Origin: a virus
Virus record (IMG/VR): IMGVR_UViG_3300020580_000001
Location: 18,781 to 82,780 of that record
DNA length: 64,000 bases
Reading direction: 5' to 3' (one strand)
Shown here: in pieces, positions 204 to 61,879 of the stretch
How the letters are laid out: each line of letters starts with the position of its first letter
Numbering within the stretch: position 1 is the first letter of the stretch
Notes under the pieces: model-generated
What the model was told of the DNA's origin: nothing
The model's database searches: none
Seen by the model: the letters and a program-made list of their open reading frames with translations, nothing else
Made by a program: the position numbers and the translations under genes

Positions 204-275
204 TGGGGGATGGTCTAACGGTAGGACGGCCCGATTTACCCCGAGGCAATCCCGGTTCGAATCCGGGTCCCCCAT
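204..275 (+). tRNA. tRNA-Gln-like gene with a non-canonical anticodon arm (pseudo-tRNA or tRNA mimic)
   Basis: Acceptor TGGGGGA/TCCCCCA, D arm GTC-TAACGGTAG-GAC, perfect T arm CCCGG-TTCGAAT-CCGGG; anticodon arm GCCCG-ATTTACCC-CG(A)GGC has a bulge and an 8-nt loop; no encoded CCA. Confidence 0.65.
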
Positions 276-288
276 CAACCCGAATGGC

Positions 289-55414: not shown

Positions 55415-55618
55415 ATGACACCGGAATCTCTAAGAGCCTGGCGGGAGCGTATGCGCTGGTCACAGGCGAATGCAGCGGATGCCCTCGGCCTGTCGGCCGT
55501 TGGCTACCGTGACTATGAAAAGGGCAAGCCTCTCAAGGGAGCAAAACCGCGGTCAATCCCAAAAACCGTCGCGCTTGCCTGCGCCGCAATCACGCATCGA
55601 ATACCGCCAGAGGAATAA
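55415..55618 (+). CDS. XRE-family HTH regulator
   Basis: MTPE.LR.WR..M.WSQ..AA.ALGLS......YE.G....IP..VALAC.A. Confidence 0.85.
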   Translation: MTPESLRAWRERMRWSQANAADALGLSAVGYRDYEKGKPLKGAKPRSIPKTVALACAAITHRIPPEE

Positions 55619-56128: not shown

Positions 56129-56374
56129 ATGGCTGACTATTACCTGACAACGGACCATTCCGCATCCAGCTATGGCATGCCAGTGCTTGTTGATCCATCA
56201 ACGGGAACGGCATATGGCCCAGCCGATAAATTGCCGGATGATGTTACAAGCGCCCCATCAGCATGGGACTATGTGTGGCGCAAGCAGGATGCTGGCAGAT
56301 ACGCATGGCTCGATGAAGTTAGCAACAATACAGAAGCATCTAATATGGCTGCCAAGTTTTTGGCAATCAAATGA
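56129..56374 (+). CDS. early hypothetical protein
   Basis: Shared RBS motif; LTTDH.ASSYG.PVLV......YGP.D phage motif. Confidence 0.75.
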   Translation: MADYYLTTDHSASSYGMPVLVDPSTGTAYGPADKLPDDVTSAPSAWDYVWRKQDAGRYAWLDEVSNNTEASNMAAKFLAIK

Positions 56375-56440
56375 CCCTTCGAAGCGCGACCTTACGGGGC
56401 CGCGTCACGAAAGGCCAAGACAAACCAAGGGAGAACGAGA

Positions 56441-56608: not shown

Positions 56609-56642
56609 CCCTTCCCCATCGGGGCTTAACCTCCCCGATCCA

Positions 56643-56714
56643 GAAGCGCCAGACGGAGCTAAGACAACATACCGTCTGTCTGGGTTGCCCAGGGCTTTAG
56701 ACTGGTGCTTCACC
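56643..56714 (+). ncRNA. structured repeat copy 1 (divergent)
   Basis: GAAGCGCCAG...CTGGTGCTTC-ACC, 72 nt, preceded by a TGACCCTTC hairpin. Confidence 0.5.
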
Positions 56715-56752
56715 TTCCCCGCGCCTCGGGGTTTCAGGGGCAGAGAACGAAA

Positions 56753-57001
56753 ATGGTAAATCATCCAAATAGAAGCAGCCAATTTAAGTCTCAACGGGAA
56801 CCTGAATTCCATCTCCAGCACTTCGGTCCTTGCGAGCCACATTGGCCTAAAGGCGGCTGGTCTATTTACCAAATCACGGGGGATGAAATAGCCCAGCGCA
56901 TCACATTCGATATAACCGGAAAGGTAGTTCGCCGCGATTCTTGGTGTGGCTATATCGGCATTTTCGAAACGTTGCCGGAAGTCATGGAGGCTATGCAATG
57001 A
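56753..57001 (+). CDS. early hypothetical protein
   Basis: Shared RBS motif; MVNHPNRS N-terminus seen in small phage proteins. Confidence 0.7.
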   Translation: MVNHPNRSSQFKSQREPEFHLQHFGPCEPHWPKGGWSIYQITGDEIAQRITFDITGKVVRRDSWCGYIGIFETLPEVMEAMQ

Positions 57002-57306
57002 CCCAGTTTCACGAAGGCCAGGATGTAGAGGTTTGGAAAGAAGTCCGCACTCGCGGAACTGACCTTCACCAAAACTACGTTCGCCGCTGGTGCAAGGCGA
57101 AGATCGTTTATGCGCTAAAAGAAACACCAAGATATCTTGTCCAATTCCCAGAGCCCAACGGCAAATATGACGTTGACGGAACCCGCGCCGTATTCGACGC
57201 GGAGCATATCCGGGCGGTAGAGCGTGACATCGGCTTGCCTGATTATGCCCTCGATGATCGCCAATGGTGCGACCGGTGGAATAGGCGGATAGGGGAAACC
57301 ACATGA
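56998..57306 (+). CDS. Tudor/Agenet-like mini-protein, paralogue 1
   Basis: MTQFHEGQDVEV..WCKAKIV..VQFP..RAVFDAEHIR. Confidence 0.7.
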   Translation: MTQFHEGQDVEVWKEVRTRGTDLHQNYVRRWCKAKIVYALKETPRYLVQFPEPNGKYDVDGTRAVFDAEHIRAVERDIGLPDYALDDRQWCDRWNRRIGETT

Positions 57307-57386
57307 CCCGCCGTTCAATCGAGTCCATCTACTTGTTGCCAACAAAAGACTGACCCTTCGACACTGGCGGTTTCGGCCGCCAGCAC

Positions 57387-57475
57387 GAAGCGCCAGAAAT
57401 GGAGCCGCACGCGAAGCCTGCAACGGCTAGCTCACATGGCTTAAATGCGCGGATAGTGGCCCGCGCCGCTTCACC
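57387..57475 (+). ncRNA. structured repeat copy 2
   Basis: GAAGCGCCAGAAATGGAGC..AATGCGCGGATA..GCCCGCGCCGCTTCACC, 89 nt. Confidence 0.65.
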
Positions 57476-57499
57476 TAAACACAACAAAAAGGAAACCTA

Positions 57500-57865
57500 A
57501 TGCGTAAAATACTTCTTGCGACACTAACATTCACGGCCTTGGCTTTTCCAGCATTGGCCAAGAATACCATGGTTATGGTTAATCTATCCGGCGTCGTCAA
57601 ATCTTCCGGCGCCAATGCAGCATCAACAATAGTTAATGTTGGGGTTGTGGATCTTATCGCGACCGGCAACCACGTTGACGTCTATAATCCTATTACTCAC
57701 TCCTTGATACCAGCCCTTAGCGGCGTTGTCGTGCCTCTTGGAACGATATCCGATATGGTGTTTAATGCTCCTGCATTTTTAACGGTTCAAGGCGCGGGTC
57801 CGTTTGCGGTAACTATCGATTACTCGACAGTTCCGCCAACTGTTGGACCGGCGGTTTCGCTCTAA
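57500..57865 (+). CDS. secreted beta-rich protein
   Basis: Signal peptide MRKILLATLTFTALAFPALA; SD AAGGA. Confidence 0.7.
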   Translation: MRKILLATLTFTALAFPALAKNTMVMVNLSGVVKSSGANAASTIVNVGVVDLIATGNHVDVYNPITHSLIPALSGVVVPLGTISDMVFNAPAFLTVQGAGPFAVTIDYSTVPPTVGPAVSL

Positions 57866-57908
57866 TTTGACATTTCTTCTGCGGACCGGTGCAAGCCAGC
57901 CCGCACGA

Positions 57909-57979
57909 GAAGCGCCAGAAATGGAGCTGTCTGCCAATGGCGGAAGAATGCGCGGATATAACGCCCGCACCGCTTCACC
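57909..57979 (+). ncRNA. structured repeat copy 3
   Basis: GAAGCGCCAGAAATGGAGC..AATGCGCGGATA..GCCCGCACCGCTTCACC, 71 nt. Confidence 0.65.
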
Positions 57980-57998
57980 TAAATCAGGAGGAATGAAC

Positions 57999-58205
57999 AT
58001 GACCCAGTTTAACGAAGGCCAAGAAGTTGAGGTCTTAACCGACCCAGCATTCCCGCGCGGGACGTTTGCATGGCGCAAGGCGAAGATCGTCGCGCCGACC
58101 ATGCACACACATCGCGAACTTTATACCGTCCAATTCCCCGACAACTCCCGCGCCGTGTTCGACGCGGCTCATATACGGAGCACACCATTCTGGAGCACAC
58201 CATGA
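57999..58205 (+). CDS. Tudor/Agenet-like mini-protein, paralogue 2
   Basis: SD AGGAGG; MTQFNEGQEVEV..WRKAKIV..VQFPD.SRAVFDAAHIR. Confidence 0.7.
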   Translation: MTQFNEGQEVEVLTDPAFPRGTFAWRKAKIVAPTMHTHRELYTVQFPDNSRAVFDAAHIRSTPFWSTP

Positions 58206-58564
58206 CCCAATTTCACAAAGGCCAGGAGGTTGAGGTTTTCAAGCCGTACTTTGACGAAACCCGCACGATTGAGGCGTCAACACGATGCGACTGGCGCGGC
58301 GCAAAAATCGTGGAGATAGGATTGCGCAGCTACCCGGTGCTGGGCAAAATGGATAGGCAATGGAAGCCTGCCAAGTTCGTTGTCCAATTCCCAGACGGCT
58401 CACGCGCCGTGTTCGATGCGGAGCATGTCCGCTTATCGAAAGAGCAAGTCGAGCAAGAGTTGGCCGACAATGGACAGCGATTCGTTGACTCGATGAGCCG
58501 CGCCAAGAAAGTCGCACACGATCTTGGCGAAGGACTCATGGGCCGCGGAAAATATGCAGACTGA
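58202..58564 (+). CDS. Tudor/Agenet-like mini-protein, paralogue 3
   Basis: MTQFHKGQEVEV..WRGAKIV..VQFPDGSRAVFDAEHVR. Confidence 0.7.
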   Translation: MTQFHKGQEVEVFKPYFDETRTIEASTRCDWRGAKIVEIGLRSYPVLGKMDRQWKPAKFVVQFPDGSRAVFDAEHVRLSKEQVEQELADNGQRFVDSMSRAKKVAHDLGEGLMGRGKYAD

Positions 58565-58616
58565 CCCTTCGGCATGTAGCGAGCCTGACCAGGCAGGCGT
58601 GAGAGCGCTACATTGC

Positions 58617-58691
58617 GAAGCGCCAGAAATGGGGCCGAGGCCTCGACAAATGCGCGGATACACCAGCGAGGATGGCCCGCGACGCTTCACC
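58617..58691 (+). ncRNA. structured repeat copy 4
   Basis: GAAGCGCCAGAAATGGGGC..AATGCGCGGATA..GCCCGCGACGCTTCACC, 75 nt. Confidence 0.65.
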
Positions 58692-58774
58692 CCACCGGAC
58701 CGCTGCAATATGCGGACACCGCATGCTGCACTGCTAGCCGCGTTGCAGCGGTCCGGAATTAAAAAGGAGGATTA

Positions 58775-58987
58775 ATGCAACAGGCAGTTACACGCCTAAA
58801 GGCCGGAACGCTCGCGGCCACCACCGAAACCATCGAGCTAAACGACGTCGAGACGGACCTGGAAAAGGCCCGCTTCGATCACCAGGCCAAGCTTTTTGCG
58901 CTCCAGCAGGAGTTCAACGGAAAGCGCGACAAGCTACGGCAGGAATACCACGAACGTGTTCAGGCAATTACGGGAGATTCAGCGTAA
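58775..58987 (+). CDS. small coiled-coil protein
   Basis: SD AAGGAGG; helical charged sequence. Confidence 0.7.
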   Translation: MQQAVTRLKAGTLAATTETIELNDVETDLEKARFDHQAKLFALQQEFNGKRDKLRQEYHERVQAITGDSA

Positions 58988-60679: not shown

Positions 60680-61222
60680 TCAAGAAGAATCTTGATCCAT
60701 ACGCCTTAACAATTCTACCATTGTCGAGTGTTCCACGAGCCTAGCCGCACCCGCAATCCGCGCCGCCTCTTCGTTTATGATTTTTTTTGCCTCAGTAGGG
60801 CTCACCTTAAACCATTCACCTCTAGTATTTTCTGTCTTTAAGCGATGATTAATAGACTTCTCGACAAGCTCTGCTATATTTTGATTAGGCATCCATAACG
60901 CATAATACAAATACAAATATTCCCAATGACCTATCTGTATTGTAGCTAACCTACCGTGAATATCACTTGATATCCCTATTTTAGTGTGAACCATTTCTTT
61001 TGTTGAAATTGCATAAACTGCTACGCGTCCAATACGTTTAAGGGTTCCCCTTGGATAGTCAACACTTAAAGGTTGCGACACCTCTTCTTCAAGAATTGGT
61101 AATCCAACTTTCGCAACCGCAAGTTTCTTCTCTATTGATTTACATAATGACTCACGGCGTCGCAAGATCTTCTGCCATTCGCGTCGCGTCGGCAATAGCT
61201 CCGTACCTACTTTCCAATACAT
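60680..61222 (-). CDS. GIY-YIG-like (T5orf172/MUG113) domain protein
   Basis: VYAI......KIGIS.D...RL..IQ.G, E..I...L......GEWF.V. Confidence 0.8.
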   Translation of the reverse strand: MYWKVGTELLPTRREWQKILRRRESLCKSIEKKLAVAKVGLPILEEEVSQPLSVDYPRGTLKRIGRVAVYAISTKEMVHTKIGISSDIHGRLATIQIGHWEYLYLYYALWMPNQNIAELVEKSINHRLKTENTRGEWFKVSPTEAKKIINEEAARIAGAARLVEHSTMVELLRRMDQDSS

Positions 61223-61879
61223 TCAGCCCCGCTGCCTTTTCCCACGAAAATCCGCGCCTGCGTCGTAAGTTGACCGGTATTTTTCCCCACGAAACATAAA
61301 ACCGATTCCTTCTATGTACACCCTGCCAGCCTCAAGACTATCCGGTGCCCCGGCCATCGTTGCCCTTTCCGTGAATCCCCTAATCCTCGCAGGCTTAAGC
61401 TCTGGCTCGTTTATCGATTCTATTTTAATATTTCCCCCTTGAAATTTCAAGAGAATCTTTGCTGCACTACGATCGATTCTATTGTGGATCGTCTTCTCCG
61501 TACACTGCTCACGTTGGGCCATTTTCCAGACTGGCACGCCGAAGCCCCATGCAGCCAATCGCCTAATCGAATATTCGTTTTCGGCCCGTCTTAGCCATGC
61601 CAGCCAGTCAAACACGATTTCCATCATGGAGATTGCCGCCGGCGTTGGCGTACCCTTCCAACTCGCCGGCGTGGCCCCATAGGCCGTATTAGCGTCCTGG
61701 ACAACCTTCAAAACCCATCCGCCGCCAAGTGGCCTGCGGTAGCGCGCGTCAGGATCCGGCAGCATGGATAGCGTTAGCCAGGCTTGCTTAATCGTAAGCT
61801 TGAGCTGTTCAAGATCGGCGTTCAATGACAGCCACCAAAATAATACGCCATTGCCATAGCAAGCAAGCCGAGCGACCAC
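61223..61879 (-). CDS. DUF6362-like protein, putative late-gene transcription regulator
   Basis: AW.TL..LPD, P.P.AIS.ME.V..WL.WL, G.P.WK.A....C...T...R...A; true start probably ~61825. Confidence 0.6.
   Translation of the reverse strand: MVARLACYGNGVLFWWLSLNADLEQLKLTIKQAWLTLSMLPDPDARYRRPLGGGWVLKVVQDANTAYGATPASWKGTPTPAAISMMEIVFDWLAWLRRAENEYSIRRLAAWGFGVPVWKMAQREQCTEKTIHNRIDRSAAKILLKFQGGNIKIESINEPELKPARIRGFTERATMAGAPDSLEAGRVYIEGIGFMFRGEKYRSTYDAGADFRGKRQRG

Follow-up and report, generated by a model that had tools for sequence, protein, structure and literature searches.

Apparent assortment of loop and tail cassettes in a family of predicted Tudor-like phage proteins

How can small proteins encoded by one phage genome be alike down to their synonymous sites in some segments and yet be unalignable in the segments between? 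This question is raised by three short genes, here called paralogues A, B, and C, in a stretch of 64,000 nucleotides (nt) (the window), which forms the right-hand 64 kb of IMGVR_UViG_3300020580_000001, a complete 82,780-bp IMG/VR virus record with direct terminal repeats. A reading of the sequence alone had taken their products for Tudor/Agenet-like mini-proteins with a constant scaffold and with loops that were replaced wholesale. The analyses reported here place the proteins, by models and fold matches, in the Tudor-like SH3-fold superfamily, and comparison of 219 family proteins indicates that their loops and C-terminal tails behave as discrete cassettes. We consider it probable, if only by a modest measure, that these cassettes are exchanged at nucleotide-conserved blocks and that the proteins are putative variable binders.

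RESULTS

Three paralogous genes with common blocks and unrelated loops

Each of the three open reading frames (ORFs; Table 1) is preceded, 8 to 9 nt 5' of its start, by a GGAG-type ribosome-binding site, and the start of paralogue C overlaps the stop of paralogue B in ATGA. Pairwise BLASTP comparisons among the three products yield E values of 3e-14, 1e-14, and 9e-14. The ribosome-binding sites, the translational coupling, and pairwise E values on the order of 1e-14 together indicate that these ORFs, which lie on the plus strand at the coordinates given by the sequence-only reading, are real genes. The whole genome holds exactly three copies. The best explanation is that they are translated genes, early or accessory, of an 82.8-kb soil phage with a contractile tail, and that each encodes one cytoplasmic domain; tail sheath, portal, large terminase, major head protein, and head maturation protease are recognized in this phage.

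The paralogy and the motifs ascribed earlier to the three products are borne out by their alignment, which contains 27 invariant columns (MTQF..GQ.VEV, W..AKIV, VQFP, and D..RAVFDA.H.R). The string GTCCAATTCCC, said to be identical in all copies, is indeed present in each of them, at 57139, 58128, and 58382. The loops between the blocks, whose sequences had been quoted correctly, cannot be aligned, and no loop is common to any two copies. Paralogue A has an extra 8 residues (EPNGKYDV) in the beta3-beta4 turn, which constitutes a fourth variable site.

Variable segments recur in different combinations

When the 219 family proteins are cut at the block boundaries of the family profile, the identity between loops is bimodal, with its mass at about 0.15 and a separate group at 0.6 or above. 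Both loops sort into 164 classes each, and their lengths range from 6 to 26 residues for loop 1 and from 7 to 23 residues for loop 2. Among pairs of proteins with a common loop 1, 75 of 85 have loop 2 below 0.35 identity; reciprocally, loop 1 is below 0.35 identity in 67 of the 78 pairs with a common loop 2. More than one partner class is found for 31 of 35 multi-member loop-1 classes and for 31 of 36 multi-member loop-2 classes. The C-terminal tails, which are themselves composites, form 27 module groups, and 99 of the 107 pairs with a common tail module have neither loop in common. Tails were scored by local BLOSUM62 alignment with a threshold above that of a reversed-sequence control; this score replaced global identity normalized by the shorter tail, which was too permissive as a measure.

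Parts of the three window copies can be traced individually to other members. Paralogue A and P0005 are 89% identical in loop 1 and unrelated in loop 2; the EPNGKYDV insertion of paralogue A is identical in P0099, whose loops are unrelated; and the tail of paralogue A holds a fragment that is also in P0068. Paralogue B matches P0011 in loop 1 (92% identity) and P0036 in loop 2 (75% identity), the other loop being unrelated each time. The tail of paralogue C joins a module common to P0006 and P0010 to a module common to P0007 and P0184. As judged from the sequences, the variable parts thus appear to assort independently as discrete cassettes, in the manner of a shuffled mosaic family, and the cassettes appear to be replaced at four sites: the beta1-beta2 loop, the beta2-beta3 loop, occasionally the beta3-beta4 turn, and the C-terminal tail.

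Several cassettes are rich in cysteine. A loop 2 of the form Y-C-x-C-x2-C-N-x-G occurs in P0037, P0055, P0115, and P0122; a Cys/His-rich loop 1 of 26 residues occurs in P0034 and P0120; and P0022 has a CxxCxGxG-like tail. Such cassettes may equip the barrel with metal-binding knuckles.

Loop DNA is at random identity beside conserved block DNA

The same division is present in the DNA, which was compared among 46 gene copies. Identity is 0.43 in loop DNA, compared with 0.42 after shuffling, and 0.69 to 0.81 in block DNA; for the three window copies, the corresponding values are 0.32 to 0.56 for loops (0.42 shuffled) and 0.67 to 0.90 for blocks 1 and 2. Pairs with a single cassette in common display sharp contrasts, with loop 2 at 0.96 to 0.97 beside loop 1 at 0.47 to 0.63. 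The bimodal identities, the independent assortment, and the random-level identity of loop DNA argue that the loops were replaced rather than gradually diverged. The earlier proposal of diversification by loop replacement therefore stands: the cassettes are discrete and assort independently, loop DNA at random level lies beside blocks whose synonymous sites are unsaturated, and the comparison of blocks with loops across homologues gives no sign of gradual loop divergence.

Within shared cassettes, 13 synonymous and 9 non-synonymous codon differences occur over 63 codons. Because synonymous differences outnumber non-synonymous ones, the shared cassettes appear to be conserved by purifying selection rather than to drift fast.

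The strand-coding blocks (block 1, MTQFHEGQEVEV; block 2, WRKAKIV; block 3, VQFPDGTRAVFDAEHIR) are nearly invariant, and their conservation reaches the choice of codon. Among the degenerate codons for invariant residues, 13 of 25 are identical in all three window copies. Conservation at synonymous sites had been noticed in these copies, and it is measurable: the pairwise same-codon fraction between them is 0.61 to 0.71, and across the 46 copies the same codon is used in 62% of pairs at block positions with the same amino acid, against 39 to 41% expected from the codon usage of either the phage structural genes or the family's own loops. Codon choice is specific to position and often runs against the preference of the genome: Q51 is CAA in 22 of 22 cases, E7 is GAA in 43 of 43, and the proline codon used least here, CCC, predominates at P53, as AGG does at R66. 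A blastn comparison of the whole window with approximately 40 loci matches only block 1 (with about 12 nt upstream), block 3, and intergenic repeats, and nucleotide conservation extends to a few bases upstream of the ATG and to the TGACCC stop/start junction. Of the constant scaffold described earlier, the constancy of the blocks holds, but the scaffold is more than passive, given its many invariant charged residues and its conservation at the nucleotide level.

The predicted fold is a Tudor/Agenet-like barrel

AlphaFold2, supplied with an alignment of 103 homologues, models paralogue B (the minimal domain) at a predicted local distance difference test (pLDDT) score of 79.6 with five strands (E9-14, E24-35, E40-45, E51-55, and E59-61), and models paralogue C at a pLDDT of 86.0 with an equivalent barrel followed by a long C-terminal helix at residues 80 to 113. 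In the models, the domain is the five-stranded, strongly bent antiparallel barrel of about 55 to 60 residues that defines the Tudor/Agenet-like superfamily. The top Foldseek matches in the PDB are the Tudor/Agenet domains of LBR, Papi, PHF20, AGDP1, and PHF1 (E values of 7e-3 to 5e-2; template modeling scores of 0.58 to 0.74). By VIA-align, which is independent of Foldseek, the 68-amino-acid (aa) copy matches the PHF19 Tudor domain (Z = 9.7), a PWWP domain with single-stranded DNA (6kco; Z = 9.4), the ERCC6L2 Tudor domain (Z = 9.1), the Agenet domain of NtAGDP3 (Z = 8.5), and PSHCP (6nnb; Z = 7.9), and the 120-aa copy matches the same fold families, with Tudor domains at Z values of 7.7 to 7.9; values in this range allow the fold, not the function, to be concluded. 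Tudor, Agenet, chromo, and PWWP domains make up almost all of the 30 best structural matches.

Sequence matches are weak and point the same way. The 68-aa copy scores 22.5 bits against Pfam Agenet (PF05641; cut-off 27; E = 1.6e-4), the other two copies score 15.3 and 12.6 bits, 25 of the 103 homologues match Pfam Agenet at E < 0.01, and the family profile reaches the Tudor domains of JMJD2A and SETDB1 at an E value of about 0.04. From the models, the fold matches, and these weak but consistent sequence matches, the proteins can be placed in the Tudor-like SH3-fold superfamily, outside any curated family, in line with the barrel first suggested by their motifs. At candidate aromatic-cage positions, judged by sequence, the only conserved aromatics are the W before beta2 and the F in beta3; the remaining cage positions presumably fall in variable loop 1 or on G/A residues. 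The predicted complex of the 68-aa and 120-aa paralogues has a score of 0.00, which says nothing either way.

A large family found so far only in phages

A word-indexed profile search returned 218 relatives, and an exhaustive search returned 422 representative clusters at E <= 1e-3, 294 of them at E <= 1e-10; the family thus comprises at least 422 clusters at 50% identity. Nearly all members are unnamed single-domain proteins of 60 to 180 aa; in 131 of 219 the first residue is exactly the M of MTQF in block 1, and 46 more have one extra residue. Two domains are fused in P0003, two-copy arrays are present in L006, L013, L020, L030, and L039, and three copies stand back to back in L016, L028, and L032.

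Relatives were seen only in IMG/VR viral contigs and soil metagenome contigs. A scan of genome contigs found none in one genome each of 185,579 prokaryote species, and 50,697 GenBank phage records gave no match either to tblastn or to blastn of the gene region. Pfam gives no additional domain in the paralogues or their homologues, NCBIfam gives nothing meaningful for these proteins, and PHROGs gives phrog_21642 alone (function not annotated), for one copy at E = 0.009. The protein atlas returned unnamed small-protein clusters and YorP (at 0.90). BFVD holds many uncharacterized small SH3-like phage ORFans, which are common in phages, and a literature search yielded no description of small, hypervariable, SH3-like proteins from early phage genes. 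By these searches, the family appears to be large, phage-only so far, and unnamed in any curated library. What is new is the family and its evolution by loop-scale cassette shuffling in a 60-residue domain, the fold itself being known.

RNA-like repeats are frequent neighbors of the genes

The sequence-only reading had also offered the interleaved RNA-like repeats as possible partners of the proteins. Three repeat copies lie among the paralogues (Table 1), and the conserved 5' extension of the third, TGACCCTTCGGCATG, starts at the stop codon of paralogue C (58562). A weaker copy lies near 56624-56740. The invariant core comprises GAAGCGCCAGAAAUGG, a variable hairpin, and AAUGCGCGGAUA, followed by GCCCGCGxCGCUUCACC, the last part of which is also written CGCUUCACC. 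A multi-stem junction is predicted, but its stems are invariant and so provide no covariation support; Rfam has no match for the repeats, either at the gathering threshold or at E <= 1.

The covariance model finds 23 repeat copies in 14 loci, where they share the strand of the Tudor-like genes without exception and lie no more than about 2.5 kb away. The element is present in the window and in L005, L006, L014, L019, L020, L028, L036, L039 to L042, and L045. The 5' extension often begins at the stop codon of a gene, as TGAC(CC/GT)TTCGGCATG; the stop is TGA in 39 of 45 genes, and TGACCC is present in 13 of those. The exact 18-nt core occurs in 25 IMG/VR viral contigs, of which only about 5 have a family gene in the flanks fetched; conversely, L007, L009, and L013, with flanks of 5 to 6 kb, carry a gene and no RNA element. 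Within the window, repeats occupy every intergenic spacer, not just those beside the paralogues. The proposed partnership is weakened accordingly: the element is often directly 3' of the genes, but some 20 viral contigs lack a gene nearby and several long loci have the gene only, such that repeats and genes look like frequent neighbors in one operon type and not obligate partners.

DISCUSSION

Cassette exchange and its alternatives

Variability is usual in the loops of SH3-like barrels, and the three window copies have no loop in common, so that one might suppose that unconstrained loops of ordinary paralogues simply drifted by substitutions and indels, with no exchange of cassettes. We regard this as very unlikely. 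Drift does not account for bimodal identities with reciprocal sharing of single loops, nor for loop DNA at random level beside unsaturated synonymous sites in adjacent blocks, and the shared cassettes evolve slowly and under constraint. Going by these comparisons, segmental replacement can produce the observed pattern and gradual divergence cannot, such that the drift explanation appears already contradicted. That the mosaics are assembly chimeras formed at the conserved blocks is hardly credible at all. It is true that all sequences were assembled from short metagenome reads and that the blocks recur both inside a genome and from one genome to another, but exact block runs are mostly shorter than 20 nt, below the usual assembly k-mers. 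Moreover, an independent assembly at 36x depth reproduces the region without a difference, contigs from a second soil sample run across the loop and block junctions of all three genes at 100% identity, and identical cassette combinations are present in data of several origins (JGI, ENA, Logan, and NCBI).

Two further explanations locate the function elsewhere than in the variable parts. We retain as the main rival, possible though improbable, an adaptor with a constant ligand, because the many invariant charged residues suggest a function for the constant part. Its real functional site would be the invariant face (the W at the beta2 start, the F in beta3, and conserved E/K/D/H/R residues), its ligand would be nucleic acid, a host machine (RNA polymerase or protease), or a phage protein, and loops and tails would be passengers or cargo recruiters. 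Conservation reaches at least 90% at 18 positions among the 103 members, and many of these residues are charged and probably lie at the surface; Tudor, chromo, and PWWP relatives bind ligands at the equivalent open end of the barrel, some of them DNA or RNA (6kco and 6nnb); and the tail modules resemble short linear motifs common to otherwise unrelated members. Purifying selection on the cassettes (13 versus 9 differences) and their repeated use in many combinations, however, speak for functional parts and against passengers, and the nucleotide conservation of the blocks exceeds what protein function alone requires. Less probable again, and in our view unlikely, is that the proteins are RNA-binding chaperones, processing factors, or antitermination factors of the repeats in the same operon. 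The strand and proximity of the element in 14 loci, its 5' edge at the stop codon in several of them, and the existence of RNA binders among SH3-like and Tudor-like barrels favor such a role, but it fits poorly with the contigs and loci that have one partner only and with repeats in every spacer of the window, and hypervariable loops are unexpected for a conserved RNA ligand.

The explanation that we favor, a Tudor-fold family whose loop and tail cassettes are exchanged at nucleotide-conserved blocks, also has evidence weighing against it. The bipartite graph of cassettes has no closed cycles, which precludes a strict four-gamete argument, so independent assortment rests on cassettes found with unrelated partners. 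Clustering of the databases at 90% and 50% identity drops pairs that share everything and thereby inflates the excess of pairs with a single common cassette. Block identity beside a shared cassette is only slightly above the average (0.78 versus 0.69 for block 3a). Exact runs common to block pairs are short (median, 9 to 11 nt), reaching 20 nt or more in only 2 to 8% of pairs; on account of these short runs, the recombination route is one that we can only infer. Searches of the phage for RecT, ERF, and YqaJ recombinases found none, the Pfam Agenet and Tudor scores of all three paralogues are below the gathering cut-offs, and the cassette model leaves the origin of new cassettes unexplained.

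Relation to known variable and Tudor-like systems

The closest structural counterparts are the eukaryotic Tudor/Agenet "Royal family" domains (PHF19/PHF1 Tudor, FMRP, and plant AGDP Agenet; Pfam clan CL0049), which are likewise five-stranded SH3-like barrels of about 55 to 60 residues. The similarity, as the Agenet and JMJD2A/SETDB1 matches indicate, is weak in sequence and extends over the whole domain, and the two-domain form of P0003 recalls tandem Tudor and Agenet proteins. Unlike these, the phage proteins stand alone at 60 to 120 aa, fall below Pfam cut-offs, and are not expected to have a histone-like methylated ligand, and shuffling of loop cassettes is not a known feature of the eukaryotic families. 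Only two positions of the aromatic cage, the W and the F already named, would be conserved on a mapping assumed from Tudor alignments.

The concentration of variation on a constant small barrel has a parallel in SH3 domains, in which the RT and n-Src loops set ligand specificity; Fynomers are Fyn SH3 domains with these loops randomized. In both cases variation is concentrated in the beta1-beta2 and beta2-beta3 loops, but the phage family is natural, exchanges whole cassettes of differing length as well as tail modules, and consists of only putative binders. Conserved nucleotide blocks that flank variable segments and act as recombination joints are known from pilE/pilS of Neisseria, vlsE of Borrelia, and mosaic phage tail fibers. 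The phage family resembles the gene-conversion systems (pilE/pilS and vlsE) in its nucleotide-conserved flanks and in the combinatorial reassortment of variable segments; it differs in having no silent donor cassettes, exchange being seen between expressed paralogues and between phage genomes, and in that its unit is a loop in a 60-residue cytoplasmic domain rather than a surface antigen or receptor-binding protein. By analogy, loop shuffling in these phages would be a functional counterpart of antigenic variation by gene conversion and of engineered SH3 loop libraries.

Targets of diversity-generating retroelements (DGRs) are similar in that a phage encodes hypervariation on the ligand-binding part of a constant scaffold. 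A DGR, however, makes adenine-directed substitutions at fixed length, whereas the variable segments of this family differ in length and are unrelated in DNA. The complete 82.8-kb genome has no RVT_1 match that would indicate a reverse transcriptase, and no DGR template repeat was found. A DGR was excluded on the grounds that there is no reverse transcriptase in the genome, that there is no template-like repeat, and that the loops differ in length.

Prokaryotic members of the chromo/Tudor-like SH3 fold that keep part of the aromatic cage have been described before. These bacterial chromo-like domains, some of them tandem, are secreted, are fused to caspase-like or other peptidases, and have cell-wall peptides as their proposed ligands (Kaur, Iyer, Subramanian, and Aravind 2018, PMC5906684). 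The phage proteins, by contrast, begin directly with strand 1, have no signal peptide and no enzyme domain, and are encoded in an early-gene cluster; neither secretion nor peptidase fusion is indicated in a family in which 131 of 219 members start at the block 1 M and Pfam finds no extra domain.

How the variation may arise and what it may be for

Under cassette exchange, the most likely role of the blocks would be that of short-homology joints at which paralogues recombine with one another, as do coinfecting phages; new loop and tail combinations would result, as would genomes with arrays of two or three distinct versions. The two long variable loops would correspond topologically to the RT and n-Src specificity loops of SH3 domains and, with the tail motifs, could form variable binding surfaces aimed at variable host targets (in takeover or counter-defense), while the invariant charged face would hold a common function. 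It is their early accessory location and their diversity that suggest variable host factors as the putative targets, and a binder or host-interaction role is what we infer for these proteins. One may go further and suppose that soil phages keep the blocks nucleotide-conserved so that loop and tail cassettes recombine and create new specificities against host targets such as defense systems, in which case the family would be a natural combinatorial binder library and, by analogy, a recombination-based counterpart of DGRs; this is entirely possible, though on balance we doubt it.

If the inferred function is true, nature has already sampled hundreds of loop and tail combinations on a scaffold of about 60 residues, and the family would be of use as a model of retroelement-independent diversification of host-interaction proteins in phages, as a source of small binders, and as a marker of accessory early regions in uncultured soil phages. 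It would also be an unusually clean case of within-domain recombination at the scale of single loops, with nucleotide joints that are directly testable. Even the conservative reading defines a new, sizeable, phage-restricted family of the Tudor-like superfamily.

Genomic setting

The paralogues belong to a cluster of small genes on the plus strand, headed by a helix-turn-helix gene (Table 1) and running opposite to the structural genes. Across 24 loci there is no conserved neighbor gene, the next commonest family being present in 5 loci, which is typical of accessory early regions.

Table 1. Positions of the paralogues, their parts, and associated features in the 64-kb window
Feature	Position	Strand	Product	Parts or remarks
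Paralogue A	56998..57306	+	102 aa	
Paralogue A, parts				block 1 56998-57033; loop 1 57034-57087; block 2 57088-57108; loop 2 57109-57138; block 3 57139-57213, including the 8-aa distal-loop insertion; tail 57214-57303
Paralogue B, minimal domain	57999..58205	+	68 aa	
Paralogue B, parts				block 1 57999-58034; loop 1 58035-58070; block 2 58071-58091; loop 2 58092-58127; block 3 58128-58178; tail 58179-58202
Paralogue C	58202..58564	+	120 aa	
Paralogue C, parts				block 1 58202-58237; loop 1 58238-58291; block 2 58292-58312; loop 2 58313-58381; block 3 58382-58432; helical tail 58433-58561
RNA-like repeat, copy 1	57382..57480	+		intergenic; covariance model R1, 77.7 bits; predicted multi-stem junction
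RNA-like repeat, copy 2	57904..57984	+		directly upstream of paralogue B; R1, 82.8 bits
RNA-like repeat, copy 3	58612..58696	+		R1, 72.3 bits
Helix-turn-helix (Cro/CI-type) gene	55415..55618	+		head of the small-gene cluster holding the paralogues; Pfam HTH_3, 25.7 bits (cut-off 23)

Upstream of paralogue A, an ORF of 82 aa (56753-57001, plus strand) begins MVNHPNRS, and M/V-x-NHPNRS replaces MTQ as an N-terminal extension in some family members (P0064, P0066, and P0075); this N-terminal motif may be another shuffled module. The 121-aa ORF between paralogues A and B (57500-57865, plus strand) has an N-terminal signal-peptide-like segment and no family match. In a soil metatranscriptome run, contigs cover 57642-57871 (identical) and parts of 58560-58893 only; none lies over the three paralogue genes, which is not evidence on their expression.

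Eight of the 18 plus-strand TGACCC hexamers in the window fall within 2.2 kb (at 56372, 56606, 56999, 57304, 57351, 58000, 58203, and 58562), and these clustered hexamers mark the stops of genes, their starts (ATGACCC), and the 5' edges of repeats. Their clustering is compatible with cassette-like joints for whole genes as well as for loops. Short, low-depth metagenome contigs (runs X1 and X3) join 56369-56391 to 57374-57402, skipping about 990 bp that include paralogue A; with flanks of less than 30 nt, they hint weakly at a variant or related phage that may not carry the paralogue A cassette.

Just downstream of the early cluster and on the opposite strand, a T5orf172/MUG113-domain gene adjoins a DUF6362 gene (60680-61222 and 61223-61879, both minus strand). 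At the other end of the window, ARAGORN predicts a tRNA-like gene at 204-276 (plus strand), with an undetermined reading of a two-base anticodon loop.

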